This document shows positions 2,589 to 29,866 of a stretch of DNA of 45,693 nucleotides, one piece after another (the stretch's first letter is position 1; the number at the start of each line of letters is the position of its first letter). The DNA comes from Candidatus Parcubacteria bacterium. Its GTDB lineage: Bacteria; Patescibacteriota; Minisyncoccia; JAHIHE01; JAGLIN01. The DNA is taken from assembly GCA_023140775.1 (NCBI GenBank), contig JAGLLA010000009.1, forward strand, positions 1 through 45,693, read 5' to 3'. The notes under the pieces are model-generated. The model made no database searches and was not told where the DNA came from. It was given only the letters and a program-made list of their open reading frames with translations. A program made the position numbers and the translations under genes.

Positions 2589-4895
2589 ATGGACATCATT
2601 CCAAATAAAAAATCAAATCTTCTGTTTCAGAGAGGTGACATGGCAAATAAAGGCGTTATTGACTTGCGTCAGTTTTCTGACGAGAAAAAAAGAAAAAATA
2701 TATTAGTAGAAAATAATAACAACACAGTTTATGAAATTATTCGAAAAGAAAGTATTACAGAGTCAAAAAAGATTGCCCAAAAAGCAGATATAAAGCAAGA
2801 TGGAGCTATTGAGAATTATGCTTTACGTGAAAAAAAATATAAAAAGAGTTATGTCTCAAATGTTGATGTAAAAAAAACAGAAAGTGGAATAAAGCCAAAA
2901 TTTCGTTTTTCTCTTATATTGAGTAGATCTTTTGCATCGTTCATGTTTGCATCTGTATTTGTCTCTTCTCTTGTATTTTCTCTTTCGTTCCTTCAAAGTC
3001 AATTTGAAGAAAAGGGTCGAATTATGGGGGTGGGTGTAGAGGCTTTTGATCACTTGAAACAAGCAGGACAGTCTGTTGTTAAGCATGATTTTAGCGAAAG
3101 TTTTGGTGAATTTCAAGATGCCAAACTTACCTTTTCTGAAGCAAAAAGACTAACCGATGAATTCGGATTTGGCTTGGCGGGAATGCTCAACGCTTTGCCA
3201 ATAGATACGCCACTTTCTACTGCCAGAAATCTTTCAGGAGCGGGAGAAAACATCGCATTTGCGGGAGAAAATATTGTAAAACTTTTTGATGAGATCTCGA
3301 GGCTTGATCCAGGAAATTTTTCTTCTTCATCAATTTCAGGATTTGGAACTTTGATAGATAAAATTGCGATCAGTCTAAGGCAAGCTGGAAATGACATAAA
3401 TTCGATAAATATAGATTATATACCAGCTGAAATGAGAAATAAAATAGAGCTAGCTCAAAAAGAGTTGCCTATACTGGCTGACAATCTGGAAAATTTATCT
3501 GAAGATTTCGAGACTCTAACTGAGATAATCGGAAACAAAAGGCCTCAGAAATATTTGTTATTATTTCAAAATAATAGCGAAATGAGAGCGACTGGAGGGT
3601 TTATTGGAAGTTATGGAATTTTGGATATGGAAAATGGAAAAGTAGAAAATATATTTATTGATGGTATATTCAATCCGGATGGACAGCTGAAAGAGAAGAT
3701 CGTCCCACCGATGCCAATTCAGAAAATTAGCGCGAACTGGAGCATGCACGACGCAAATTGGTTTGCTGATTTCCCAACTAGCGCTCAAAAGGTTGCTTCT
3801 TTCTATGAGAAAACTGGAGGACCTACAGTTGACGGAGTGATCTCTTTTACGCCAACTGTAATCGAAAAAATATTAAAGATCACAGGTCCAGTTCGTATGG
3901 ATGAATATGACATAATCATAAATGCCGAAAATTTCCTTTCGCTCTCCCAAATGCAAGTTGAAGAATTGTATGACAGGCAGGAGAATAGACCGAAGAAATT
4001 TCTAGCAGATTTGATGCCAGTGATATTTGAAAAAATGATAAACAGTGAAGAAATGAACAAGAAGGAAAAAATTCAAAGATATCTTGATTTTATCAATGTA
4101 GTTGAAGAAAGCTTGAAAGAAAAACACATTATGTTCTATCACAGAGATTCTGAGATTGAAAATATGATCATCAAGAGAGGTTGGGGTGGTCAGATGTTGA
4201 ATTCTAGCGGAAACTATTTGAGTGTCGTAAATAGCAATATAAATGGATATAAAACAGATGCTGTCGTTGAAGAAACGATCGATCATCTGACTGAAATTTT
4301 TGAAGATGGTTCAATTGTTAACACTGTCAAAGTCACCAGAGTGCACAAGGGCGGACAAAGTGAGTATGATTGGTATAATCGGGTTAATTCTGATTATTTG
4401 AGAGTGTATGTGCCACTTGGAAGCATTTTGCTGGAAGCTAGCGGTCATACAGCGCAAGAATATGAGCCTCCAATGAATTATGATAATTTTCGTATCGATG
4501 AAGATGTAAAAAATGTTGAAGACACGATCAAGATTGATCCTGATTCGGGAACTCAGATTTTTACAGAATCCGGGAAGACTGTTTTTGGAAATTGGGTTTA
4601 TGTGAGTCCGGGTGAAAAGGTTGAAGTGATCTATAAATATAAATTGCCCTATCAGATTGATTTTGATTCTTTTACAAAACCAGCCGATAGATATAGTTTA
4701 CTAATTCAGAAACAGTCTGGTAGTCGAGGAAGTAATTTTTCTGGTACAATTAAAGTTCCAGATAGATGGAAAATTCTTTGGGAGTCTGCTGATTTGATAA
4801 CTCAAGATCAAAAAGAAAGCTATTTTGAGAGCAAATTAACGACAGATAGGTTCTATGGAGTTGTTTTTTCAAGGGGGCTCTGGGGGGATGAATAG
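2589..4895 (+). CDS. DUF4012-like membrane-anchored extracytoplasmic protein (768 aa)
   Basis: One TM segment (FASFMFASVFVSSLVFSLSF) followed by a large domain with LLLFQNNSEMRATGGFIGSYG, the signature I associate with DUF4012. The true start may be the internal MANKG at 2640. Confidence 0.6.
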   Translation: MDIIPNKKSNLLFQRGDMANKGVIDLRQFSDEKKRKNILVENNNNTVYEIIRKESITESKKIAQKADIKQDGAIENYALREKKYKKSYVSNVDVKKTESGIKPKFRFSLILSRSFASFMFASVFVSSLVFSLSFLQSQFEEKGRIMGVGVEAFDHLKQAGQSVVKHDFSESFGEFQDAKLTFSEAKRLTDEFGFGLAGMLNALPIDTPLSTARNLSGAGENIAFAGENIVKLFDEISRLDPGNFSSSSISGFGTLIDKIAISLRQAGNDINSINIDYIPAEMRNKIELAQKELPILADNLENLSEDFETLTEIIGNKRPQKYLLLFQNNSEMRATGGFIGSYGILDMENGKVENIFIDGIFNPDGQLKEKIVPPMPIQKISANWSMHDANWFADFPTSAQKVASFYEKTGGPTVDGVISFTPTVIEKILKITGPVRMDEYDIIINAENFLSLSQMQVEELYDRQENRPKKFLADLMPVIFEKMINSEEMNKKEKIQRYLDFINVVEESLKEKHIMFYHRDSEIENMIIKRGWGGQMLNSSGNYLSVVNSNINGYKTDAVVEETIDHLTEIFEDGSIVNTVKVTRVHKGGQSEYDWYNRVNSDYLRVYVPLGSILLEASGHTAQEYEPPMNYDNFRIDEDVKNVEDTIKIDPDSGTQIFTESGKTVFGNWVYVSPGEKVEVIYKYKLPYQIDFDSFTKPADRYSLLIQKQSGSRGSNFSGTIKVPDRWKILWESADLITQDQKESYFESKLTTDRFYGVVFSRGLWGDE

Positions 4896-5444: not shown

Positions 5445-5903
5445 GTGATGAAAATGTTAATTAGCAGAAAAATACTTCTTTTTATGATATTTTTTTCTGT
5501 CTTTTTTGTTGGGCAATTTTCTTTTACTGATATAAATGTTATTGGTGTTAAAGTGGCTACTGCTGGTTGTGTCCCTGGACCTAATGATGCTAATAGTGAT
5601 GGAGATGATTGTGATCCGAAAGAAAATTTATTTAATTGTAAACGAGACTGTTTACCTGCTGGAATTCCAACAAAAACTCCGGAGGATGCGCTAGATGCAA
5701 TAATCAAATGGATCTTAGGTTTTGGCTTGGTGCTTTCGGTCATCTTCCTGATTTGGGGTGGTATATATTACATTGGATCTTCTGGAGATTCGCAAAAAAC
5801 AGAGACAGCTAAAAAGATTATCAAATATGCCATATTGGGAATTATCGTGATCGGCGCATCGTTTGCAATTATTTCTGTGATAAGCACAATGCTTGCTCCA
5901 TAA
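5445..5903 (+). CDS. TrbC/VirB2-like (CPR-type T4SS pilin-like) protein, paralog 1, with a Cys-rich N-terminal extension
   Basis: Signal/TM segment followed by the conserved core WILGFGLVLSVIFLIWGGIYYIGSSGDSQKTETAKKIIKYAILGIIVIGASFAI. The ORF-track start is GTG; an ATG lies at 5448. Confidence 0.7.
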   Translation: MMKMLISRKILLFMIFFSVFFVGQFSFTDINVIGVKVATAGCVPGPNDANSDGDDCDPKENLFNCKRDCLPAGIPTKTPEDALDAIIKWILGFGLVLSVIFLIWGGIYYIGSSGDSQKTETAKKIIKYAILGIIVIGASFAIISVISTMLAP

Positions 5904-5909
5904 TCTGAT

Positions 5910-6287
5910 TTGACCAAACCTTTAAATAGTGAAATAATGATATTAATGAAAAAAAATAATCAAAAAATATTTTATGTATTACTGGCATCTCAATTTTTAG
6001 TCGCTGTTAGTGTTGCGAATGCTCAATATAGAAAGCCTTCAAGTTTTGGTTTGGCAAATGATATGGATAGTATGGCGGAGAAAATGATCGATTGGCTTCT
6101 GGGGTTTGCAACAGTACTTTCAGTTCTTGCTTTGATTTGGGGTGGCGTAAATTATATAGGTTCTTCTGGGGATGCGCAAAAAGCTGATCTCTCCAAAAAA
6201 ATTATTTATTTCGCTCTGATAGGTTTGGTGGTTACTGGTCTGGCTTTTGCGATGGTGAAAGTTCTAGTAGATGTAATTTTGAAATAA
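5910..6287 (+). CDS. TrbC/VirB2-like pilin-like protein, paralog 2
   Basis: Core WLLGFATVLSVLALIWGGVNYIGSSGDAQKADLSKKIIYFALIGLVVTGLAFAM. The track start is TTG; the likely ATG is at 5937 or 5946. Confidence 0.7.
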   Translation: MTKPLNSEIMILMKKNNQKIFYVLLASQFLVAVSVANAQYRKPSSFGLANDMDSMAEKMIDWLLGFATVLSVLALIWGGVNYIGSSGDAQKADLSKKIIYFALIGLVVTGLAFAMVKVLVDVILK

Positions 6288-6320
6288 TATTTAATAATCA
6301 AAAAACTAACTTTTATCCAA

Positions 6321-6692
6321 TTGAAATATAATATTATGAAAATGAAAAATAAGACACATCTCATACTCTTGTCTGTTTTGCTTTTTGTAAGTTATGCTAG
6401 TACAGCGCTAGCTAATATAGCATCTGGATGGGCTACTCCAGCGAAGCCAGGCGGAGTCGCGGACGATGTTGATTCTGCATTTATAAATATGACAAATTGG
6501 ATTTTGGGATTTATATCTATATTGGCTGTGCTCTTTGTTATTTGGGGCGGTGTTATGTATTTAACTTCAGCAGGTGATGAAAACAAGGCAGAAAGCGGAA
6601 AAAAAACCATAACATATGCTCTATTGGGTATAGTTATAGCTGGCCTTGCTTATGCAATGATAAAGATTATTGTAGGTACTATATTAATATAA
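6321..6692 (+). CDS. TrbC/VirB2-like pilin-like protein, paralog 3
   Basis: Core WILGFISILAVLFVIWGGVMYLTSAGDENKAESGKKTITYALLGIVIAGLAYAM. The track start is TTG; the likely ATG is at 6336 or 6342. Confidence 0.7.
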   Translation: MKYNIMKMKNKTHLILLSVLLFVSYASTALANIASGWATPAKPGGVADDVDSAFINMTNWILGFISILAVLFVIWGGVMYLTSAGDENKAESGKKTITYALLGIVIAGLAYAMIKIIVGTILI

Positions 6693-6734
6693 TTAAACTA
6701 TTTTTATAATAAATCAATAAAATTTTGAAAGGAG

Positions 6735-7100
6735 GTGAAACGAATGAAAAATTTAATAAAAGTTTTTTCAATTTCATATGTTATTGCTTATGCAATGAGT
6801 TATAGTCCAGCTGTAGCTGTAACGATTTCAACGTGGGGTACAACAGAAGCTCCTGCCGGTGTGCCAACTGACATTAGGGGCGCTGTAATGAATCTTACTA
6901 ACTGGATTTTGGGATTTATCTCTATTATTGCAACACTTGTAATTATCTGGGGTGGTGTTCAATATCTTACTGCCGGTGGAAATGATGAGCAGGTTGGCGC
7001 AGCAAAGAAGACTATTTCTTACGGAATCATTGGAATTGTAATTGCAGGTCTTGCTTATGCAATGGTTATTGTTGTTTCAACTGTTATTCTACAAGCATAA
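6735..7100 (+). CDS. TrbC/VirB2-like pilin-like protein, paralog 4
   Basis: Core WILGFISIIATLVIIWGGVQYLTAGGNDEQVGAAKKTISYGIIGIVIAGLAYAM. AGGAGG sits just upstream of the ATG at 6744, so that is the likely start. Confidence 0.72.
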   Translation: MKRMKNLIKVFSISYVIAYAMSYSPAVAVTISTWGTTEAPAGVPTDIRGAVMNLTNWILGFISIIATLVIIWGGVQYLTAGGNDEQVGAAKKTISYGIIGIVIAGLAYAMVIVVSTVILQA

Positions 7101-7185: not shown

Positions 7186-8193
7186 TTATTCTTTGTTATG
7201 TAAATATAGAAAACTAAGACTTCCAAAAAATATGATAAACATCAAATAGATTAAGTGATAATTGAAGGCGATACCAATTGAAAGATTTTTCTCTATTCCA
7301 AATGATGTCAAAAAAGATGAAATACCTAGTTCTAAAATTCCAATTCCGGCGATCCCGTTGATCGGCAGACTTGTTGTGACAATTATTATTAAAGAAATTG
7401 TAAGTACTTCGAGATAAGTTAAGTCAATTGGATATGCATTTAGAATAAATCCGAAAGCAAAGATTAGGGTTGTAAATATTAAAGCAGATAAAACTAGCGT
7501 TTTTCCTATTGTATCTTTGTAAAATTTATAGATTGGTAATAAACTATCAGTATATATAAATATTTTATTAAAAATTTTAGAATCTCTTTTTTTTGATGAG
7601 AAATTTTTTAGTCTGGACAGAATGACATCTCCCTTGAAAAGCAATGTGATTATAAACAGTAATAGAGTAAATATTAGTATATATGAAATGCTTTTTAACT
7701 GGATAATATTGCCAGATAAAAACAAAACAACAAAAAGCAAGAAGAAAAGTATAACAAGCATATCTATCGTTCTCAGATATAAAAGTAATAAAAAACCTTC
7801 TTTTTTGGGAACTTCAGAATATTTTTTTAAGAGGATAGGAAGCGATAGTTCGCCAATTCGAAACGGTAGAATATTTATTACAAGATTATTTGTCAAAACT
7901 GTTGCGAACAAGTCTTTTATGCGGATCCTGCTTCGAAGAAGTAATTTTATTCTCAACGTTCTTATCAATGTTAATAAAAAATAAAAAATAAAACTTATTA
8001 TGACATAGTTATAGTTTATTTTTGTAAATAATAAAAGAATATTCTTGTAATCGGTTTGTCTCAATAAAAAATAACCCAAAGTCAGGGTAATAAGCAGGGA
8101 AATTATTATTTTTTTACTGAAGTGTTTTGTCATTATAGTATATTTTATAAAACATATAATTAAATCGCTTGTATTGAAATTTATTTTTTGCAA
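7186..8193 (-). CDS. Flippase-like polytopic membrane protein (lysylphosphatidylglycerol-synthase TM-region family)
   Basis: About 8 TM segments and the motif LVINILPFRIGELSLPILLKK (P-x-R-x-GE). The track start is TTG at 8193, overlapping the upstream gene. ATG at 8133 (MTKHFSKK) is more likely. Confidence 0.6.
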   Translation of the reverse strand: MQKINFNTSDLIICFIKYTIMTKHFSKKIIISLLITLTLGYFLLRQTDYKNILLLFTKINYNYVIISFIFYFLLTLIRTLRIKLLLRSRIRIKDLFATVLTNNLVINILPFRIGELSLPILLKKYSEVPKKEGFLLLLYLRTIDMLVILFFLLFVVLFLSGNIIQLKSISYILIFTLLLFIITLLFKGDVILSRLKNFSSKKRDSKIFNKIFIYTDSLLPIYKFYKDTIGKTLVLSALIFTTLIFAFGFILNAYPIDLTYLEVLTISLIIIVTTSLPINGIAGIGILELGISSFLTSFGIEKNLSIGIAFNYHLIYLMFIIFFGSLSFLYLHNKE

Positions 8194-8990
8194 ATTGCCA
8201 GAAAGTCTAAACTATTATCAATATCATTTTCTGTTAAGTGATAATCTCTTATGCTAAATTTATTTAAAAAATTAATATTTTTTGTTTTTTTATTTTGATT
8301 AATAGTGTATTTTAGTAGTTTTAGGATTAGTGTTTTTAATGATTGGGGAATGAATTTTGCAATATTAAAAAAATCATAAGAAAGTATTCTAGAAATTAAT
8401 TTTACTCTTTCAATTTCTATTTTCTGTACCTCTTGGTTGCCAAAGACGCCCATTATTTTTATATTAGAAAATGTTCTTTGTAATATTTCATTCAATTCGT
8501 TGAAATAATATTCTCTGACATGAAACTCATTAAGAAGTCTTCCTCTTCTTCCTGTTCTAGGTTTTTTATTCGGAGTAGAAATAATAAGTATTCCACCACT
8601 TTTTAAAACCCTATAAATTTCTGAGATAAAATTATAATCATCTCGAACATGTTCTATGACATGAAAAGATACAGCTACATCGAAAGAGTTACTATTATGT
8701 GGAATTTTTGTACCATTAAATTGTTGAAAGACGCAGTTTTCTGAAGCATATTTATCCGAAGCATGTTTGATTGTATTTTGATCAATATCTATCCCAATAA
8801 TTCTTTTTACATTTTTAGACAGTAAGCTTGTTCCGTACCCCTCTCCACATCCAATTTCTATGACAAGATTGTCAGCAGTTAATTTTTCTATCGCAGATTG
8901 ATATTCAAAAGAATGACGCAAAAAAATAAGATATTCTTCTTTCGTTCTGAATTCCCTAGGGATTATTCTCTCTCTTGTTTTTGTCATCAT
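8181..8990 (-). CDS. Class I SAM-dependent methyltransferase
   Basis: SAM-binding motif I VIEIGCGEGYGTSLL, followed by DVAVSFHVIEHV and LKSGGILIISTPN. Confidence 0.85.
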   Translation of the reverse strand: MMTKTRERIIPREFRTKEEYLIFLRHSFEYQSAIEKLTADNLVIEIGCGEGYGTSLLSKNVKRIIGIDIDQNTIKHASDKYASENCVFQQFNGTKIPHNSNSFDVAVSFHVIEHVRDDYNFISEIYRVLKSGGILIISTPNKKPRTGRRGRLLNEFHVREYYFNELNEILQRTFSNIKIMGVFGNQEVQKIEIERVKLISRILSYDFFNIAKFIPQSLKTLILKLLKYTINQNKKTKNINFLNKFSIRDYHLTENDIDNSLDFLAICKK

Positions 8991-8993
8991 AAT

Positions 8994-10085
8994 TTATTTA
9001 TTTGCTAATTTCGTAAATTCATTTAAGTATTTTTCAGAAACTGTATTCCAACTATAATTCATAATTATAAATTCTCTTGTTTTTTTGATTGCATTATTCT
9101 CCTTTTTACTATTTAATAAATCATTAATAATCCTTGTATATTCATTTTTATCGTAAGGGGTTATTAAAAATCCTTTCTTATAATCCCTAAGTGCATCCTT
9201 GATTCCTTCTAGATTTGAAGCGACAACAGATAAACCGCAGGAAGCTGCCTCTAGTGTCACGAGCCCAAATCCTTCAGCATTGCCCTTGACCGGAATATTG
9301 GGCATTATAAAAATATTAGATGAATTGTAAATGAATTTTAATGTCGTAGTATCTATTTTTCCAAGGAGCTTGACGTGTTTATTAAGTTTTTTTTCTGCTA
9401 TAATCTTAGCAATTTTTTCATTCATCACTCCTTCTCCGATTACAAGATAAACAAAGTCTTTTCTTTTTTTCAGAATTTCAGGAATAACATTCTCGACAAA
9501 CCATTGAACTCCTTTTCTTTTAACTAATCTCCCTACTGAAATTATTATTTTCTTTTCCTCCAATGGAATTTTCAATGTTTTTTCTAATTCAAGTAGAATA
9601 TTCTTTTTATTCATATTTTCTATATAAAATTCATCTGAAATTCCATTTGTAATTATGGTTATTTTTTCAATGGGTACTTTTCTTTTTATGCACTCGTTCT
9701 TTGTATAATTGCTTATGCAGATTATTTTATCAAGTTTCGCAATGCTTTTAAGAACAAAATATTGATAAATTTTATTTGAATACACAATATCTAAAGCATG
9801 AGCTGTCATTATAACAGGTTTTTTGCTAAAAATCTTTAATATAAATCCTAGGGGAGCGATTGAACCGTCTGCAATATAAATAATATTAATTTTTTTGGTA
9901 AAAAGAATCAAAAATGATTTTAGGAGAAAAAACGGCACTACGATAAATAGCCACTTATTGGAACCGCCCCACTTAATAAGTTCTACCTCTTCTTTTCTCT
10001 CTAGTTGTCTATAAAGCTCGTAGGCAACTTTTTCCATTCCTCCTATTGAGGGAGGAAATTTTCTGGAAATATACAAAATTTTCAT
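8994..10085 (-). CDS. Glycosyltransferase family 1 (GT4-type)
   Basis: N-terminal FPPSIGGMEKVAYEL and C-terminal EGFGLVTLEAASCGLSVVASNLEGI motifs. Confidence 0.88.
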   Translation of the reverse strand: MKILYISRKFPPSIGGMEKVAYELYRQLERKEEVELIKWGGSNKWLFIVVPFFLLKSFLILFTKKINIIYIADGSIAPLGFILKIFSKKPVIMTAHALDIVYSNKIYQYFVLKSIAKLDKIICISNYTKNECIKRKVPIEKITIITNGISDEFYIENMNKKNILLELEKTLKIPLEEKKIIISVGRLVKRKGVQWFVENVIPEILKKRKDFVYLVIGEGVMNEKIAKIIAEKKLNKHVKLLGKIDTTTLKFIYNSSNIFIMPNIPVKGNAEGFGLVTLEAASCGLSVVASNLEGIKDALRDYKKGFLITPYDKNEYTRIINDLLNSKKENNAIKKTREFIIMNYSWNTVSEKYLNEFTKLANK

Positions 10086-10163
10086 ATGTATTTAGTGTGA
10101 TAAATATAAATTATAATCAAAGAATCTTCCACATAAAGATGCCTCACAGTTAAAGTTATTCTG

Positions 10164-15194: not shown

Positions 15195-15234
15195 AATACA
15201 TTCCCTTAGAATGAATTTATTTAACAAATTTGTG

Positions 15235-15314
15235 TGCAGGCGGTGGGAGTCGAACCCACAATCCGAGGAACATGGTCCTAAACCATGCGCGTATGCCAAT
15301 TCCGCCACGCCTGC
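15235..15314 (-). tRNA. tRNA-Leu (anticodon TAG), type II with a long variable arm; no encoded CCA
   Basis: Hand-folded cloverleaf: acceptor GCAGGCG/CGCCTGC, anticodon stem CATGG/CCATG with loop TTTAGGA, T arm GTGGG-TTCGACT-CCCAC. Confidence 0.9.
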
Positions 15315-15357: not shown

Positions 15358-16326
15358 TCAAGCCTGCGTTCGTTTTGAATGAAATTTTTTGTGAATATCT
15401 TTGAGGTGTTTGTTCGTGATGTGGGTATAGATTTGAGTTGTGGTTATGCTTGAATGTCCCAGCATTGATTGAACTGATCTGATGTCCGCGCCGTTGGTCA
15501 ATAGGTCTGTGGCAAAGCTATGCCTGAGGGTGTGAGGTGTGACCTTTTTGACAATGCCAGCTTTTGTAGCGCATAATCTTACGATTCTTTGAACACTTCT
15601 GGGAGTCAATCTGAGAGACGAAGCAGTGTCAGCTCTATTTTTTTTGTTTGATTTTTTGAAATGAATAAAAAGAGCTGGATCGACATCCTTTCTTTTTTTG
15701 AGATACTCAAGCAGTACTTTTTTGGCAGAATCAGAAATGAAGACGATTCTAATCTTTCCACCTTTTCCTCTAATCGAGAATTCTCCACTTTTCAAATTTA
15801 TACTGTCTCTGTTTAAGTTGGATAGTTCGGAAACTCGAAGTCCAGTTGAAAACAAAAGTTCTAAAATAGCATTGTTTCGTAAATCTGCAATATTATTCCC
15901 TTTTGATGCAGAAATAAGCCTTTTCATTTCATCTAGCTCCAGAAATTCAACCTCTCGGTCTTCAGTTTTTCCCAGCTCAATTTTCTCGCTAGGTAGAGAT
16001 TGAATGTCTCGTTTGGCAAGATAAGCCAAAAATCCACGAATGGCAATTATATAATAATCTTGAGTCACTTTTTTTAGACCATCTCCTTTTTCATTACAAT
16101 ATCTGTTTAGATAGAGTCGAAACTTTCTAACCAGATTACTTGTAATATTTTCAGGACGACTAATTTCAGACCACTCGAAAAAACGTGACAAATAGTGGTC
16201 ATAATTTCTGATAGTGAGCGGGGATCGATTTTTTTCAATTTCAAGATACTCTAGATACTCACTTTTTAGCTTAGTTATTTCTTTTATTGACATATTATCG
16301 TAGTATGTTAGTATATCTTTGCTCAA
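15358..16326 (-). CDS. Tyrosine site-specific recombinase, XerC/XerD family
   Basis: N-terminal SAM-like domain and C-terminal catalytic motifs LFSTGLRVSEL and HTLRHSFATDLLTNGADIRSVQSMLGHSSITTTQIYTH. Confidence 0.88.
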   Translation of the reverse strand: MSKDILTYYDNMSIKEITKLKSEYLEYLEIEKNRSPLTIRNYDHYLSRFFEWSEISRPENITSNLVRKFRLYLNRYCNEKGDGLKKVTQDYYIIAIRGFLAYLAKRDIQSLPSEKIELGKTEDREVEFLELDEMKRLISASKGNNIADLRNNAILELLFSTGLRVSELSNLNRDSINLKSGEFSIRGKGGKIRIVFISDSAKKVLLEYLKKRKDVDPALFIHFKKSNKKNRADTASSLRLTPRSVQRIVRLCATKAGIVKKVTPHTLRHSFATDLLTNGADIRSVQSMLGHSSITTTQIYTHITNKHLKDIHKKFHSKRTQA

Positions 16327-24496: not shown

Positions 24497-25483
24497 ATGA
24501 AAAAAATAATATTTCTATTTATCTCACTTTGTTTTGTATTTAGTTTTAATGTTAATTTTGCTTCAGCCTCGCAAGTGGTTGTCTCTGAAGATGGTTCTCT
24601 TTTAAATCGAAATAATAAATTGCAGAGAAGCTATGAAGAATCAAAAAACGATTTTCAAGATTCAGTGCAGAAATATAAAGAGACCAAGAAAAATTTTTCA
24701 GATGCAAAGACAAGATTTCAGAACAAAAGAGACGATGTGAGTAGGAGAGAACTAAAGAAGGGGTCTTTTAACTATTTCGACAAAATTGGTGTAGTTATGA
24801 TAAAATATTTAGAGTCACTTGAAAATAAAATTCAGAATATTAAATTTGTTTCTGAGGATGTAAAAAATGAGATGATTGGAAAAATAAGTGAAAATAGAAG
24901 TATAATCGAAAAAGAGATAGAGAAGATCAAGGCTGTTGAAACGATTGAAGATCAAAGAGTATTGGTAAGAGAATTAAAGTCTCAATGGAAAGATATTCGA
25001 GCTTCAACAAAAAACATAACAGGTCAAATAATTTCTGCCAAGATCGATGTCTTCATTTCAAAAATGAAAAAAGTCTCAGAGGAATTTCAAGTGAAGGTAG
25101 GTGCAATGGAAAACGGAGAAAGGAAAGATCTATTGCAAGCGAAAGTTGAAAAATTTGATGAAAAAATTGAGTTGGCAGAATCTCAAAATCAATTAGCTCA
25201 GGGAAAATTTTTAGAAATAAATAACGCTGATCAGAAAAATGATTTATTTAAGGAAGGGCTAAAATTTGTTCGTAGCGCGCATCAATATATCAAAGAAGCT
25301 CACAAAGAACTTATAGGTATTGCACAAGAGATCAGAGAAGAAAAAAAGAGCGACGAGGAAGATAATAGTTCTGCAGATGAAGAAACTAGTGCTATAGAGA
25401 CAGATGACAACTTAAGTGATGAAGATGATAACGAAAGTGAAGAAAGTGACGTTGAAGAAGAGGAAGAAGATGATCTTGAATAA
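24497..25483 (+). CDS. Secreted coiled-coil protein with an extremely acidic C-terminus
   Basis: Signal peptide (IIFLFISLCFVFSFNVNFASA), heptad-like Lys/Glu-rich body and a C-terminal SDEDDNESEESDVEEEEEDDLE. Confidence 0.5.
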   Translation: MKKIIFLFISLCFVFSFNVNFASASQVVVSEDGSLLNRNNKLQRSYEESKNDFQDSVQKYKETKKNFSDAKTRFQNKRDDVSRRELKKGSFNYFDKIGVVMIKYLESLENKIQNIKFVSEDVKNEMIGKISENRSIIEKEIEKIKAVETIEDQRVLVRELKSQWKDIRASTKNITGQIISAKIDVFISKMKKVSEEFQVKVGAMENGERKDLLQAKVEKFDEKIELAESQNQLAQGKFLEINNADQKNDLFKEGLKFVRSAHQYIKEAHKELIGIAQEIREEKKSDEEDNSSADEETSAIETDDNLSDEDDNESEESDVEEEEEDDLE

Positions 25484-25531: not shown

Positions 25532-25594
25532 TTTGATAGTTATAAATATTTCGACTTTGCAAATCTTATTTTTATGATAGACTTATAAAGTTCC

Positions 25595-25799
25595 AGAAGG
25601 GTGACTGAGTGGTTGCCAGCCCGAGGCTGGTCCCCTCCAGAGGCGGGCTAACGCCGGGGCGGAAAAGTGCCCCACTTAATTTTTTCAATATCGATATAAC
25701 AATTATGGAAGGGTGACTGAGTGGTTGCCAGCCCGAGGCTGGTCCGCCGGGGCGGAAAAGTGCCCCACTTAATTTTTTCAATATCGATATAACAATTAT
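25595..25799 (+). repeat. Two tandem units (111 and 93 nt). Each is the first 21 nt of tRNA-Ser fused to GC-rich hairpins and a T-run, followed by a copy of the tRNA-Ser upstream region
   Basis: gaagggtgactgagtggttg is identical to tRNA-Ser positions 2-21. It is followed by CCAGCC-cga-GGCTGG and GGGGC-ggaaaagt-GCCCC, then acttaattttttcaatatcgatataacaattat. Unit A carries a 19-nt insertion relative to unit B. Confidence 0.85.
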
Positions 25800-25886
25800 G
25801 GAAGGGTGACTGAGTGGTTGAAAGTGCTGCTCTCGAAAAGCAGTGTCCTAGCAATGGGACCGCGGGTTCGAATCCCGCCCCTTCCG
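25800..25886 (+). tRNA. tRNA-Ser (anticodon CGA), type II; no encoded CCA
   Basis: Acceptor GGAAGGG/CCCTTCC, D arm ACT-GAGTGGTTGAA-AGT, anticodon stem CTGCT/AGCAG with loop CTCGAAA, long variable arm, T arm GCGGG-TTCGAAT-CCCGC. Confidence 0.92.
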
Positions 25887-25937
25887 CAAATCAAAAATGC
25901 CGTAAAGCATTTTTTATGAAGAAAGGGATTTGAACTG

Positions 25938-26049
25938 GGAAGGGGTCGGGAAACGGTAGTTTCCCGTGGCGGAAATACTAAAACCGAGGGGTTTTAGAGA
26001 ATAATTTGTGATTAAATAGGTTATGATGTTCGATTTCCCGCCCCTTCCG
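25938..26049 (+). pseudogene. tRNA-Ser-derived element. The acceptor-stem halves (GGAAGGGG ... CCCCTTCC) bracket two perfect 7-bp hairpins and a degenerate T arm
   Basis: Hairpins GGGAAAC-ggta-GTTTCCC (25948-25965) and TAAAACC-gagg-GGTTTTA (25979-25996). The 24 nt cccgccccttccgcaaatcaaaaa are identical at 25874-25897 and 26037-26060. Confidence 0.6.
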
Positions 26050-26054
26050 CAAAT

Positions 26055-26084
26055 CAAAAAAACGAGGCATCCCCTCGTTTTTTT
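26055..26084. terminator. Bidirectional rho-independent terminator
   Basis: aaaaaaaCGAGG-catcc-CCTCGttttttt. Confidence 0.8.
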
Positions 26085-26110
26085 ATGGAAATTATAGAAT
26101 GATTTGTAAT

Positions 26111-26881
26111 TTACTCTGGCAAATTTTTTCCATCAAGCTCGGTCCAGATGAAATCGAACATAAATTTTACAAGGGAATGTATTGCTTCATTTTTGATTAA
26201 AATCGAAGAATAAGGTTTTTGCAAAGAAATGAGGGCGATTTTGTCGTCAAATAGGATCATTCCTGATTTAAAATTTTCAACAGCTGATGTAAATCGAATT
26301 TCGCGAAAATCGGTATCTTCTTCGCGATAGAATTTTTTATTTTGTTTATGGTAATCGGTGATGATATAAGCCATCGTTCCTCCAATCTGGCGTCTTTTTT
26401 TTGTTACATCAGTTAGAATCCTTGATAATCCAAGATGCTTATAGATTGATCCAGGAAAAATAACAAACATATCTTTTCGACTTTTTACCAAAACATCGAC
26501 AATATTCCAAATACCTTCAATACCTTGAAAATGGAGTATTTCTTCCTTAGGATCCGCTGTTTTGTTTTTCAGGATTCTTTCAAGTTGCGGTAAGAATTCT
26601 TTGATTCGCTGTTCTTCTTTTTCAATTTCCTTTTTCTTTGTTTCGGCAATTTTGAGTAACTTGGAAGGTTTCTGGGCAAAAAAGATTTTTTTATTTTTTT
26701 GGATTATTTCTCCGACCAAACCTATTTGTTTCAGTCTTTCCAGGACTAGATAGGTCGTCGTTCGCTTGATACCAGTTTCGTTTGCGATGCTTTGCGCAGA
26801 AACGGAGCCCAGCTTGAGAATGGCAAGGTATATTTTGATTTCTTTTTCTTTGAGACCAATTTGTTTAAGGCTTTTAAGCAT
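26111..26881 (-). CDS. TrmB-family winged-helix transcriptional regulator, paralog 1
   Basis: N-terminal LKEKEIKIYLAILKLGSVSAQSIANETGIKRTTTYLVLERLKQIGLV (TrmB-type wHTH). The C-terminal domain ends FMFDFIWTELDGKNLPE. Confidence 0.75.
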   Translation of the reverse strand: MLKSLKQIGLKEKEIKIYLAILKLGSVSAQSIANETGIKRTTTYLVLERLKQIGLVGEIIQKNKKIFFAQKPSKLLKIAETKKKEIEKEEQRIKEFLPQLERILKNKTADPKEEILHFQGIEGIWNIVDVLVKSRKDMFVIFPGSIYKHLGLSRILTDVTKKRRQIGGTMAYIITDYHKQNKKFYREEDTDFREIRFTSAVENFKSGMILFDDKIALISLQKPYSSILIKNEAIHSLVKFMFDFIWTELDGKNLPE

Positions 26882-27189
26882 ATGTTTATTAATAAATTGT
26901 TTTTAAAAAATGACAACAAAAGTTATGTACGTTAATTGCTTACATTAGCCACGATACAGAGTATGCAATTTAAATATATATTATCATATCTAAGCAGTAT
27001 AGACAAGTAATACTTTTTTATATAAGCTTAATAAGCAAAATGATCTTTTACAATTGAATTGAGAAAGAGGATGTGAAGGGAAATGGAAAAAGATGAGATA
27101 GTCGAAGCTGAGTTAAAGTTTGAAAAATTGAAACAAAGAATGAAATCTAAATTAGAGAGATAGCAATAAACAAATAGGGAGAGATAAAG

Positions 27190-27702
27190 ATGGTTGAAAA
27201 TAAAACAGAAATAAATTCCGAAAGAGCGGAGAAATGGATCGATGCGATAACGAAAATCATAAGTTATTCTTTGATAGAATCTGACGAAGAATCTGACGAA
27301 GAATCTGACGAAGAATCTGACGAAGATAGTTTCAGAGATTTTATAATAGAAATAAGAGAAGGAAATCTAGAAGAAGCATTTATGTTGCTACCTTTGATTG
27401 TTTATCGTACTTGCGATAATGAGGAGCTTGTTGAAATATATTCGCGTGTATTTATCGATGTGCTAAGAGAAAGTGAAACAGCTGAAGGAGTTATTGATGA
27501 TGTAGCAGAGGCAATAGAGAGGGAAATTTATTCAGGAGAGTTCTACCCAGAGCAAGCTCAGGCATGGTTTTTTTTGCAGTGTCTAAAAGGTATGTCGCTT
27601 GAATCTGTAAGAAAAGACAAGGTAATAGAACGATATAGAAAAGCATTACCACATCACATCAAGATAGAAGATATTGAAAAGGATGCTGACGATGAAGTAT
27701 AA
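27190..27702 (+). CDS. Acidic hypothetical protein carrying an (ESDE)4 repeat
   Basis: GGGAGAG lies 6 nt upstream of the ATG. 170 aa, highly acidic. I recognise no family. Confidence 0.5.
   Translation: MVENKTEINSERAEKWIDAITKIISYSLIESDEESDEESDEESDEDSFRDFIIEIREGNLEEAFMLLPLIVYRTCDNEELVEIYSRVFIDVLRESETAEGVIDDVAEAIEREIYSGEFYPEQAQAWFFLQCLKGMSLESVRKDKVIERYRKALPHHIKIEDIEKDADDEV
27277..27324 (+). repeat. Perfect tandem repeat, 12 nt x 4 (gaatctgacgaa), in-frame inside the CDS
   Basis: Read directly from the sequence: gaatctgacgaa occurs four times head to tail and encodes ESDE x4. Confidence 0.95.
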
Positions 27703-27790
27703 TATTAAGAAATAAATTAACATAAAAGCTTATTTAAATAATTTAAATAAGCTTTATTTTTTTGCATTAAATTATGAAATCCATTTGATT

Positions 27791-28576
27791 CTATTTCGGC
27801 AAATTCTTTCCTCTGAGTTCTCGCCAGAGGGAGTCGAACATAAACTTGAAGACACTAAAAAATTCTTGGTTGTCGATAATCAAACCGTAATATGGTTTTT
27901 TGAGGAAAAGGAGAGCGACTTTGTTGCCATAAAGAAAAATTGCGGTGTCGAGGTCTTTGAGCTCGGGTAAAAATCTATATTCTCTAATATCTGTCTCCTC
28001 AAGGCGCCATAGTCTAACTTCTTCCTTGTGATGATCGGCAATTACATAGCCCTTGTTGCCAATCTCTCTTCTTTTTTGTATGATTTTTTTCATCATCACT
28101 TTCTTTCCATAAATGTCAAAAAACTTTCCTGGCACGACCATCCACGATGTTTCTCCCGATTCAATCATATCTCCGAGAATTTTCCACATGTTTTCCTTGC
28201 CTTCGTAATATCGGACCAAAGGCATAGTAGAATTCTTTTTTCCGAGAGCTTCGAATTGGGGCAGTTGAGAAATGATCTCATCTTCTTGCTCGTTGATGGT
28301 TTGTTTTTCAAGCTCGATTAATTTGAGAAGTTTTTCAGGATTTTGAGCAATGACGGTTTGCTTTCCCTTATCTTCACTCAAGGAAATGAGTCCTTTTTCC
28401 TTGAGATTTTCGATAATAGCATAGGCATTCGATCTTTTTATTTTCGCCTTTTGTGCAATGGAACTAATTGGCGCACTACCCATTTTCAAAATTGCCAGAT
28501 AGATATCCGCCTCTTTTTTGGAAAAATTTAGTTGTTGGAGAATTTGTTGCATATTGTATAAATTAATTTTCTGCAA
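27791..28576 (-). CDS. TrmB-family winged-helix transcriptional regulator, paralog 2
   Basis: FSKKEADIYLAILKMGSAPISSIAQKAKIKRSNAYAIIENLKEKGLIS; C-terminus FMFDSLWRELRGKNLPK. By alignment to its paralogs, the start is more likely ATG at 28552 (MQQILQQLNF). Confidence 0.75.
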   Translation of the reverse strand: MQKINLYNMQQILQQLNFSKKEADIYLAILKMGSAPISSIAQKAKIKRSNAYAIIENLKEKGLISLSEDKGKQTVIAQNPEKLLKLIELEKQTINEQEDEIISQLPQFEALGKKNSTMPLVRYYEGKENMWKILGDMIESGETSWMVVPGKFFDIYGKKVMMKKIIQKRREIGNKGYVIADHHKEEVRLWRLEETDIREYRFLPELKDLDTAIFLYGNKVALLFLKKPYYGLIIDNQEFFSVFKFMFDSLWRELRGKNLPK

Positions 28577-28578
28577 TT

Positions 28579-28594
28579 CCCCCCGATAAGGGGG
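28579..28594 (+). repeat. GC-rich palindromic element, copy E1 (CCCCCCGATAAGGGGG)
   Basis: A self-complementary GC island in an AT-rich spacer, about 30 nt upstream of the likely TrmB paralog 2 start. Confidence 0.8.
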
Positions 28595-28669
28595 TTTGAA
28601 TGTAGATTATGAGGTAAATTAAAAAGAATTATTAATTAAATCTTATTGTAGGCTTAATGATGCTTTAAG

Positions 28670-28701
28670 CCCACCCCAACACTCCCTTATCGGGGAGGGA
28701 G
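28670..28701 (-). repeat. GC-rich palindromic element, copy E2 (inverted relative to E1)
   Basis: The reverse complement reads ctccctCCCCGATAAGGGagtgttGGGGtGGGC. It shares the CCCCGATAAGGG core and a trailing G-tract with E1 and E3. Confidence 0.75.
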
Positions 28702-28711
28702 TTAATAAATC

Positions 28712-29473
28712 CTATTTTGGCAGATTATTTCCATCTAATTCTTTCCAAAGCGATTGAAACATAAATTTCATCACAGTCACAAGCTCTGTATTTTCGATCA
28801 TTAATCCACTCAGAGGTTCTTTGAAAAAGATCAAAGATACTTTGTCACCATAGATATAAATTGTTGAATCAATTTTGATGTTTTCAGGAGCAAAGCGAAT
28901 TTCACGCGCATCGGTCTCATTTATTCTCCACAATTTTTCCATTATGGGATGGTGGTCGGTGATAAGAAAGCCTTTTGTTTTTGTTTCAGATCGTTTTTCA
29001 ATTACTTCTTTCATCATGCGGTCGATTCCAAAGACATCATAAATTTTTCCTGGTACGATAATCCAAGCTGTTTCTTTTGAAGCGATGAGGTCATTGACGA
29101 TATTAAAAACTCCCTCTTTTTCTTCAAAATATTGAACAGTAGGTGCTTTTATATTTTTTTGAAATAGTTTTTGCAGTTCAGGTAGTGATTTTTGAATTAA
29201 TTTCTTCTTCTTCGCGATTTTCTTTTTTTTCTGATTAATAAGATCAAGAAGTTGATCAGGATGTTCACAAACAAAAACTTGCTTGTTATCCCTTTTTTCA
29301 AGGGAAATTAGCCCCATTTCGCATAATTTTTCCAAAATAACATAAGTTGTTGGTCTTTTGATTCTCGCCTGTTTAGCAAGCTTGCTGATTGAACCGCTTT
29401 GCAATTTCAAAGCCGAGAGATAAATATCAATCTCTTTTTCAGAAAAATTTAGTTTTTGTAATATTTCTCGCAT
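28712..29473 (-). CDS. TrmB-family winged-helix transcriptional regulator, paralog 3
   Basis: MREILQKLNFSEKEIDIYLSALKLQSGSISKLAKQARIKRPTTYVILEKLCEMGLIS; C-terminus FMFQSLWKELDGNNLPK. The start is reset to ATG 29473 because the ORF-track N-terminus reads through GC-rich element E3. Confidence 0.75.
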   Translation of the reverse strand: MREILQKLNFSEKEIDIYLSALKLQSGSISKLAKQARIKRPTTYVILEKLCEMGLISLEKRDNKQVFVCEHPDQLLDLINQKKKKIAKKKKLIQKSLPELQKLFQKNIKAPTVQYFEEKEGVFNIVNDLIASKETAWIIVPGKIYDVFGIDRMMKEVIEKRSETKTKGFLITDHHPIMEKLWRINETDAREIRFAPENIKIDSTIYIYGDKVSLIFFKEPLSGLMIENTELVTVMKFMFQSLWKELDGNNLPK

Positions 29474-29525
29474 AAAGTTAAATTTAGTCTCGTAATATAT
29501 TTGGCCTTCTCGATTTCCTCTGAGT

Positions 29526-29564
29526 TCCCCCTGATAAGGGGGTTGGGGGGTTGTGAAAGTGGGG
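29526..29564 (+). repeat. GC-rich palindromic element, copy E3 (CCCCCTGATAAGGGGGttGGGGGGttgtgaaagtGGGGC)
   Basis: Same core as E1 and E2; lies 53-91 nt upstream of the TrmB paralog 3 start. Confidence 0.75.
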
Positions 29565-29593
29565 CTTATTACCACCAGGCTGAAAAAATCGAC

Positions 29594-29621
29594 GGTTCCA
29601 TAGTCCCGAAGGGCTGTGGAA
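29594..29621 (-). other. GC-rich imperfect hairpin, followed 6 nt later by T6 on the minus strand (terminator-like)
   Basis: The minus strand reads GTTCCACAGCCC-ttc-GGGACTATGGAAC then cgtcgaTTTTTT. Confidence 0.4.
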
Positions 29622-29866
29622 CTGAAATGCAAAACAAGGTAAATAAATTATATAAATATCTTCTGAATAATCGTCATTTTGGAGTACTGACATGCATCAG
29701 CATAAACTCCTCGATTGAATCTTTTTCAGTCACTTATATCTCCATTATACTCTAAAAATCATAGATTGTCAACAAGAGTTGACAACAAAACAATATAAAA
29801 AAAGGCGTCAAATAAGCAATAATAACAAATATTATGTAATAAAAAAAACATAAACTGGTATAACGA

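Follow-up and report, generated by a model that had tools for sequence, protein, structure and literature searches.

Short GC-rich hairpins that spread in AT-rich genomes and land in coding sequence are known from yeast mitochondria as GC clusters and ‘byp’ elements; these are organellar and eukaryotic, and byps are skipped by the ribosome. In bacteria, Rickettsia palindromic elements (RPEs), which measure 105–146 bp and are confined to one genus, occur in 19 protein genes and in the genes for transfer-messenger RNA (tmRNA) and RNase P RNA, and the non-autonomous bacterial repeat families compared here are about 100–200 bp long (PMC2229807). Repetitive extragenic palindromes (REPs) are, according to one published account, 20–40-bp GC-rich palindromes (PMC3733652). 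Here we analyse a tRNA-Ser(CGA) locus in a 45.7-kb stretch of DNA from an uncultured Candidatus Parcubacteria bacterium of a cold-seep metagenome (contig JAGLLA010000009.1; the window), in which an intact tRNA gene lies among partial copies of its own ends and among two kinds of hairpin module, termed M1 and M2. An original prediction, made from the letters alone, had offered tRNA-derived small-RNA (sRNA) genes, a miniature tRNA-targeting mobile element, or split or permuted tRNA remnants as explanations, and this interpretation is partly supported. We describe the locus as a hot spot at a tRNA gene, strewn with selfish hairpin modules: with a probability of roughly 0.7, we read it as a functional tRNA-Ser(CGA) flanked by dead end-copies and colonised by two hairpin-module families of Patescibacteria. 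Neither family was found in the literature searched. M1 appears to be undescribed: searches by sequence, peptide and topic returned no account of it, though one may exist elsewhere.

Anatomy of the tRNA-Ser(CGA) locus

The sole intact tRNA at the locus is a class II tRNA-Ser(CGA) with no encoded CCA at positions 25800–25887 (+), called by both ARAGORN and Rfam (60.1 bits with RF00005, for which the threshold is 29) and nearly identical at three orthologous loci, L132, L133 and L134; the original prediction had recognised it. Neither program called the two upstream units, A and B, or the downstream element as tRNA, and Rfam searches of the locus and of loci L003, L006, L010 and L075, at the gathering threshold and at E ≤ 10, yielded tRNA matches alone. 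The observed architecture was confirmed, and its repeat patterns were expected 0 times by chance when sequences were shuffled.

Three copies of the first 21 nt of the tRNA are present. Unit A opens with such a dead 5′ piece (25595–25615, +), in which A for G1 is the one mismatch. The long form of M1 follows (25616–25663, +; 48 nt; CCAGCCCGAGGCTGG TCC-CCTCCAGAGGCGGGCTAAC-GCCGGGGCGGA, three hairpins), lying in the D-loop between tRNA nt 21 and 22, and AAAGTGC, which is tRNA nt 22–28 as read from the sequence, then resumes (25664–25670, +). The 36-nt spacer behind it (25671–25706, +; CCCAC TTAA T6 … TATAAC AATTAT) contains the T-run of a terminator-like match and a −10-like box 6 nt upstream of the next G1. 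Unit B repeats the arrangement with an exact second dead copy of nt 1–21 (25707–25727, +), the short form of M1 (25728–25756, +; 29 nt, the consensus being 30 nt) and an exact copy of 25664–25706, comprising AAAGTGC and the spacer (25757–25799, +). The dead 5′ piece therefore carries M1 exactly between nt 21 and 22, and because nt 22–28 resume after the module, the insertion was precise and left no target duplication. The original prediction had the units diverge into hairpins after nt 21; the hairpins are there, and the resumption of tRNA sequence behind them, which is also found in L003 (AAAGCGCAT), had been overlooked.

Unit B is a recent 93-nt tandem copy (period by TRF), of which 76 nt are 100% identical (repeat analysis, 25652–25727 = 25745–25820), and differs from unit A only in that its M1 lacks the central hairpin (19 nt) of the long form. 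A 38-nt repeat is present in two exact copies plus the tRNA 5′ end. Each unit had been thought to duplicate the region upstream of the tRNA as well; this holds for unit B alone, as unit A sits behind a different, ancestral flank (25545–25594, +; …TTATTTTTATGATAGACTTATAAAGTTCC). Of the two hairpins proposed for each unit, CCAGCC/GGCTGG and GGGGC/GCCCC, both are GC-rich as described, and the second pairing proved to be local, formed by the module end, tRNA nt 22–28 and CCC, whereas the second hairpin of the family is TCCGCC/GGCGGA.

Could the tandem units, or the modules themselves, be assembly artefacts? Two other assemblies of the same cold-seep population contain unit A alone, which may reflect repeat collapse or true copy-number variation, and the 38-nt repeat is longer than the 31-letter words of Logan, so that graph traversal is ambiguous. 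The window matches contig DAOVWU010000005.1 of the metagenome-assembled genome (MAG) GCA_030636505.1. Logan contigs of four cold-seep runs were compared with the locus, and 31-mers spanning the A-to-B junction were seen in independent contigs of two runs. M1 itself occurs in continuous open reading frames (ORFs) with host-specific flanks, in MAGs, a single-amplified genome and a closed chromosome from many studies, and an artefact is very unlikely. Coverage spikes exactly over the hairpins, some Logan contigs carry the hairpins with unrelated flanks, and contigs end there, from which we conclude that assemblies break at the locus because of the modules. The number of units would shift by unequal recombination between the repeats, which would either restore the state without units seen in L132 and L133 or expand them.

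M1 in tRNA fragments and protein genes

M1 is a generic insertion module of two 15-nt hairpin units (CCAGCCCGAGGCTGG-TCCGCCTTGGGCGGA, 30 nt), with a 48–51-nt form that has a third hairpin; the long architecture (49–51 nt) also occurs in L017, L057, L073, L092, L099, L117 and L124. Its sequence allows either a pair of 6-bp hairpins or a single long, imperfect one (−20.5 kcal/mol). The two-hairpin reading is favoured because of loop variants and one double-compensatory stem variant, TCGGCC/GGCCGA. A search for the two M1 hairpins separated by a gene, as in an autonomous version, matched both strands, the hairpins being palindromic; it also revealed related dimers of the 15-nt unit (H2-H2, TCGGCC-type), which shows that the family is modular.

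A metagenome scan with the junction 21-mer gave seven matches, three of them real; L001, L002, L004 and L007 diverge right after the first hairpin and were treated as chance or coding matches. L003 has the same hairpins after the first 21 nt of a tRNA-Ser(GCT) with a different acceptor stem, and L005 and L006, one sequence from two metagenomes, have M1 inside a glycosyltransferase gene. When related genomes were searched for the hairpins by exact pattern, as the original prediction had suggested, the pair was found at at least 119 loci. Among the matches listed, 63 of 80 titles name Patescibacteria lineages (Saccharibacteria, Staskawiczbacteria, Paceibacterota, Giovannonibacteria, Moranbacteria, Levybacteria, Doudnabacteria and others). 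M1 was absent from viral contigs (0 matches in the scan) and from phage and plasmid collections searched with BLAST. The statistics below refer to the 120 copies listed in this exact-match census, 102 of which are the exact 30-mer and eight of which are 49–51-nt long variants.

The flanks of M1 are biased: position −2 is T in 76% of copies, −1 is C, G or T and only 2% A, and +1 to +3 are A in 74, 94 and 74%. The target preference is T(C/G)^AAA, with precise insertion and without target duplication. Loops of tRNAs hold good targets of this type, such as GTT^CGAA (either strand), TTCG^AA and GGTTG^AAAG. ORFs exclude 35 copies, and 15 of these have a tRNA gene no more than 300 nt away, against a background in the fetched DNA of 51 tRNAs in 856 kb, or one per 17 kb. 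Partial tRNA copies that neighbour an intact tRNA are interrupted by at least 12 copies of M1, each in a D-, anticodon- or T-loop. The sites include, downstream of the tRNA, the T-loop of 3′ fragments (L045, L046, L073, L081, L085, L103 and L107), upstream 5′ fragments, mostly at the D-loop (the window, L003, L066, L098 and L123), the T-loop of an upstream 52-nt fragment (L039) and, as read from the flanks, the anticodon loop of a fragment in L127. The orientation of M1 relative to the tRNA is mixed, and in every interrupted fragment the tRNA sequence continues across the module with no duplication. tRNA genes would thus be natural hot spots for M1, with survivors only in redundant fragments.

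Small GIY-YIG nuclease-like ORFs (MYYVYILYS…) adjoin M1-bearing tRNA-Ser fragments in L003 (200–450), L098, L123 and L127, and in L123 the GIY-YIG gene and the tRNA 5′ part are tandemly duplicated. In five loci labelled Pseudomonadales or Gammaproteobacteria (L048, L050, L088, L092 and L116), M1 sits in low-complexity intergenic word repeats (gaaagttgaaag, attaagattaag…); these MAG labels look doubtful, as the sequence is AT-rich and Patescibacteria-like.

Most copies lie in protein genes: 85 of 120 (71%) are in long stop-free ORFs, and 74 of these 85 are antisense to the module in the one frame that reads SAQGGPASGW, with only four in sense orientation. All six frames of the 30-mer are free of stop codons. 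The genes include DnaJ and the queuine tRNA-ribosyltransferase Tgt, in which four species carry M1 at the same codon boundary. When the L041 Tgt is aligned with the solved Tgt 10fb (E 1e-111), SAQGGPASGW stands out as ten additional residues, cleanly bounded by GF on one side and DGYAVGG on the other. Of 120 Tgt homologues, the closest pair (P0121 and P0122) have the insert, nine relatives at 77–89% identity read GF|DGYA without it, and about 16 more distant proteins have the insert or decayed forms (SAKGGPASGW, SARGGPASLW and SSTQDKPASGW). The insert is thus polymorphic for presence and absence, and its boundaries are exact, which is the pattern that a mobile insertion would leave. M1 is tolerated mainly in one protein reading frame and in the loops of dead tRNA fragments. 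Of the earlier proposals, the miniature tRNA-targeting mobile element comes closest; the module, which is what would be mobile, is neither tRNA-derived nor tRNA-specific, and is found mostly in protein genes. The Tgt genes of L108 and L115 have further GC-rich in-frame insertions (e.g. RLRPARRGASAGQG) absent from the L041 orthologue, which suggests other insertion modules in the same genes.

The uniformity of M1 raises the question of whether selection keeps it, for instance as a signal for DNA uptake or recognition, as a hairpin with a regulatory role or as a useful peptide tag (SAQGGPASGW). An identical 30-mer occurs across phylum-level lineages, the bias towards a single frame is strong, a stem variant is compensatory, and the window copy is intact while its counterpart in L134 has decayed. 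Copy identity is, on the other hand, inflated by exact-match ascertainment; the density is low, with two copies in the 45.7-kb window and both in dead DNA; close relatives of Tgt differ irregularly in whether they have the insert, and some forms of it have decayed; and copies reside in unrelated proteins and in pseudo-tRNA loops. We consider a selected function unlikely, and a DNA-uptake sequence was rejected on density.

Sister loci, the downstream element and M2

Three orthologous loci were reached through homologues of the neighbouring amidohydrolase, whose closest named relatives are from ‘Candidatus Pacebacteria’ and Patescibacteria; its identity to the window protein is 69% in L132, 67% in L133 and 63% in L134. 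The flanking sequence found ahead of unit A in the window (…TTATGATAGACTTAAAAAG…) leads without interruption into an intact tRNA-Ser(CGA) in L132 and L133, and these two loci contain no units, no M1 and no M2. In L134, this flank and the tRNA are separated by, in order, a mutated 5′ fragment, an AT-rich stretch of 44 nt, the same junction as in the window (AAGTGCCCCAC) and a diverged homologue of the spacer that lacks a T-run. Aligned with the long M1 of the window, the AT-rich stretch has 15 matches, 17 transitions (16 of them from GC in the window to AT in L134) and five transversions, and is a decayed M1 homologue. Several other perfect GC-rich palindromes, among them CGTGGAGGCTCGGCCTCCACG (twice) and one of 44 nt, lie in the intergenic region upstream of the tRNA-Ser in L134 (3780–4040).

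Comparison of the four loci shows that flank followed by tRNA, as in the two sister species, is the ancestral state, and that unit A is the gene’s original 5′ end, displaced upstream by an old event. That event, an insertion or duplication, displaced nt 2–28 and supplied the 36-nt spacer together with a fresh copy of nt 1–28.

Both units combine a −10-like box with hairpins and a T6 run, a layout for which the original prediction had offered sRNA genes as one explanation; on that view, independent transcripts built from tRNA parts would have a cellular function. The ancestral promoter, which persists upstream of unit A, the downstream element, with its very stable fold and strong terminator end, and the co-variation of M2 stems among three copies point the same way. 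Two sister species lack the units and the third has them in decayed form, so they are not conserved RNA genes, and the terminator-like end is not conserved either: it is missing in L134 and in the equivalent unit of L003. The hairpins are generic, mostly intragenic and found in both orientations relative to tRNAs; the locus has no Rfam match other than tRNA; and the folds of the upstream units are unremarkable against shuffles (z −1.1 and −1.6). We regard sRNA genes as quite unlikely, and transcripts of the units, if any, would be by-products of the ancestral promoter. For the most part the locus consists of debris and genomic parasites, and annotation as sRNA genes is unwarranted.

Downstream of the tRNA, a first terminator-like hairpin (25889–25917, +; AAAAATGC-CGTAAA-GCATTTTT) was found as an inverted repeat and in the fold. 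Further on stands a dead tRNA 3′ piece from the T-loop to the 3′ end (GTTCGATTTCCCGCCCCTTCCG) with 11 nt of flank (26028–26060, +). The repeat of the tRNA 3′ end and flank, previously put at 24 nt, is 25 nt when exact (25873–25897 = 26036–26060, offset 163 nt) and about 32 nt from the T-loop (GTTCGA) when imperfect. A second terminator-like hairpin (AAAAAAACGAGG-CATCC-CCTCGTTTTTTT; 26054–26086, +), predicted earlier, is a 12-bp inverted repeat with 100% complementarity and is also seen in the fold. Between the two 3′-end copies lie 138 nt: the first terminator, a GGGATTTGAAC stretch that resembles the reverse complement of the T-loop, M2 (60 nt) and an AT-rich hairpin.

M2 (25937–25999, +) consists of two hairpins, GAAGGGGTC-GGGAAAC GGTA GTTTCCC-GTGGCGGAAATA-CTAAAACC GAGG GGTTTTAG-AGA, and its 5′ portion forms base pairs with the second copy of the tRNA 3′ end. 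The two hairpins that the original prediction had placed within the downstream element correspond to M2, and a third, AT-rich hairpin, seen in the folds, follows (26001–26024, +). The 112-nt element is indeed structured, and its ends can pair like an acceptor stem: a closing stem and three hairpins give z −5.2 against shuffles, or −7.1 with the terminator. At L075, tRNA-Lys(TTT) is followed by a spacer that holds an inverted, imperfect copy of its T-arm, then by M2, a hairpin and finally the 3′ end of tRNA-Lys, directly repeated from the T-loop onward. The position equivalent to the third, AT-rich hairpin of the window is variable in L075; the element again folds as a closing stem with three hairpins (z −5.15). 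A third copy of M2 lies about 190 nt from the M1 copy in L006. There (4140–4320, −) it is bracketed by imperfect direct repeats of about 30 nt and preceded by a 19-bp inverted repeat copy, which spans the start of the glycosyltransferase gene that also holds the M1 insert (SAQGGPASGWQP). Other cold-seep contigs carry M2 in other contexts. An nhmmer search of about 0.9 Mb of fetched Patescibacteria DNA with a three-sequence M2 profile found none beyond the window population, L006 and L075, and M2 gave 0 matches in viral contigs.

That pieces of both tRNA ends are reused, and that the ends of the downstream element can pair in the manner of an acceptor stem, had suggested split or permuted tRNA halves, assembled in trans now or once. 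An intact, high-scoring tRNA-Ser(CGA) is nevertheless present, and the fragments are short, covering nt 2–28 on one side and the stretch from the T-loop to the 3′ end on the other; they include neither the anticodon arm nor the variable arm and are not called as tRNA. The genome is bacterial, as its PNPase, MurJ, three TrmB regulators and CCA-adding enzyme attest, and this explanation is hardly credible. To our knowledge, the joining of tRNA halves by a splicing endonuclease occurs in archaea alone. A tmRNA or permuted tmRNA was rejected (ARAGORN negative; RF04321 at only 13.5 bits), as were a retron non-coding RNA, with no reverse transcriptase nearby, and ribozymes, with no Rfam match.

The geometry of the downstream part is exactly that of an attachment-site (att) scar, a direct tRNA 3′ repeat from the T-loop bracketing an insert, in the window as in L075. 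The earlier statement that this was no simple att-site scar is accurate insofar as the insert is very small and structured. On one account, the repeats were left behind at att sites by miniature integrative elements that a tyrosine recombinase mobilised in trans, and M1 and M2 are structural or recombinase-binding parts of these elements, not modules that move independently. Seven other loci with a tRNA, a 40–70-nt spacer and a 3′ fragment, a Xer-like recombinase within the window and a 2-kb island at the same tRNA in L132 are consistent with it. M1, however, occurs far from tRNAs and inside conserved genes without target repeats, so it moves on its own; no integrase adjoins the locus, since the insert of 138 nt has no ORF and its neighbours are a 328-aa protein of no known family and TrmB; and duplication on the 5′ side is unusual for integrases. 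As an account of the whole locus it is somewhat unlikely. For M2 it is compatible with our preferred reading, colonisation of dead end-copies by two module families, and the M2 insert would then be a miniature integrative element.

The L132 island (8150–10130) occupies the position of the M2 insert in the window and encodes an Xre-type helix-turn-helix gene and small membrane proteins, with GC-rich non-coding stretches at 9690–10070. Because L132 has this island at the same position, the tRNA-Ser is an insertion hot spot. The Xer-like protein is an XerC/D-like recombinase (Phage_integrase and SAM_1; 15358–16326, −) that adjoins tRNA-Leu (15234–15314, −), and no partial repeat of this tRNA-Leu was found elsewhere in the window.

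Other features of the window, whose GC content is about 33%, include four tandem small genes matching type IV secretion system pilin / TrbC-VirB2 (5445–7100, +), an unusual array of paralogues. After the tRNA-Ser locus come three TrmB-family paralogues (26111–29632, −), interrupted by a 170-aa ORF on the opposite strand (27190–27702) that contains a perfect 12-nt tandem repeat, AGAATCTGACGA x4.2 (27276–27326). The upstream 328-aa protein, for which Pfam gave no match and a scan of genome contigs no relatives, ends in a highly acidic D/E/S-rich tail with a 21-nt tandem repeat (25402–25483).

Proposed mobility of the modules and comparison with known elements

The precise insertion, precise empty sites, lack of duplication, dependence on hairpins, flank preference and gene orientation bias of M1 lead us to propose a hairpin-guided mode of movement on single-stranded DNA. 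An enzyme that recognises hairpins would move M1 in trans, much as in IS200/IS605 elements or in REPs with their RAYT transposases. In a more specific and tentative version of the preferred reading, which we put forward as possible without favouring it, M1 is a still-active 30-nt mobile hairpin of Patescibacteria as a whole, adding five residues per 15-nt unit and moving by precise insertion and excision, with no duplication, at T(C/G)^AAA; tRNA loops would be its natural hot spots and one reading frame would be tolerated in proteins. In this version the M2 inserts are miniature tRNA-integrating elements with an inverted copy of their target.

Several observations weigh against colonisation by mobile modules. 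No enzyme that mobilises M1 was identified, there being no Y1/HUH transposase or RAYT within the 45.7-kb window, where the only recombinase, the Xer-like one, lies 10 kb off near tRNA-Leu. The uniformity of M1 copies is partly a matter of exact-match ascertainment, diverged copies being found with blastn-short, and M2 is known from just three independent copies. The M1 copies of the window are intact and the L134 homologue is decayed, which requires re-insertion, gene conversion or selection, and L132 and L133 were judged closer than L134 from a single protein (69% and 67% versus 63%). The partial tRNA duplications may have existed before the modules or may have been caused by them. RNA runs share tRNA words alone with the locus (0.04–0.06 of the sampled words), and a functional transcript is possible.

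M1 is a very small, highly uniform hairpin in conserved genes such as Tgt and DnaJ and in tRNA fragments of many Candidate Phyla Radiation lineages. Its recurrent 10-residue insertions will confuse protein alignments and phylogenies of these organisms, and it is a marker of horizontal exchange between bacteria whose genomes are tiny and supposedly streamlined. Should M1 prove truly mobile, it would offer a compact model of DNA insertion directed by hairpins.

Several known systems share features with these modules. Like IS200/IS605 elements and the REP/RAYT system, M1 combines hairpins, precise insertion without duplication, a short preferred site, precise empty sites and orientation bias. Its hairpins abut the module ends with no guide or linker segments, which is atypical for IS200/IS605. 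REPs are extragenic, species-specific and tagged with GTAG/CGTC, whereas M1 is 71% intragenic, starts with CCAG and ends with GGA, unlike REPs or bacterial interspersed mosaic elements. Classical miniature inverted-repeat transposable elements are likewise a poor match: M1 is palindromic overall, but has no target-site duplication in tRNA or Tgt. The M2 insert shares with the att duplications of tyrosine integrases and with cis-mobilizable (CIME-like) elements a tRNA 3′ repeat from the T-loop that brackets foreign DNA and restores the tRNA. It differs in being a 138-nt insert with no integrase, a two-hairpin module and an inverted local T-arm copy, and the window also shows the rarer 5′-side duplication. 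In contrast to byps, M1 is a multiple of three with no stop in any frame, and its frame bias implies that it is translated.

In behaviour, M1 is closest to RPEs. Both are palindromic non-coding repeats found in frame in conserved protein genes and also in structural RNA genes, and both are tolerated as extra peptide loops; for RPEs, neutrality of the insert has reportedly been tested in guanylate kinase. No sequence relationship was found between them, and in size and in its hosts, which are not Rickettsia, M1 stands outside the RPE family: at 30 bp (49–51 in the long form) it is 3–5x shorter and is GC-rich in AT-rich genomes, and it extends across many Patescibacteria lineages, inserting with no target duplication and with a preference for T(C/G)^AAA. 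If the mobile reading is true, M1 is much smaller than the non-autonomous bacterial repeat families with which it was compared.

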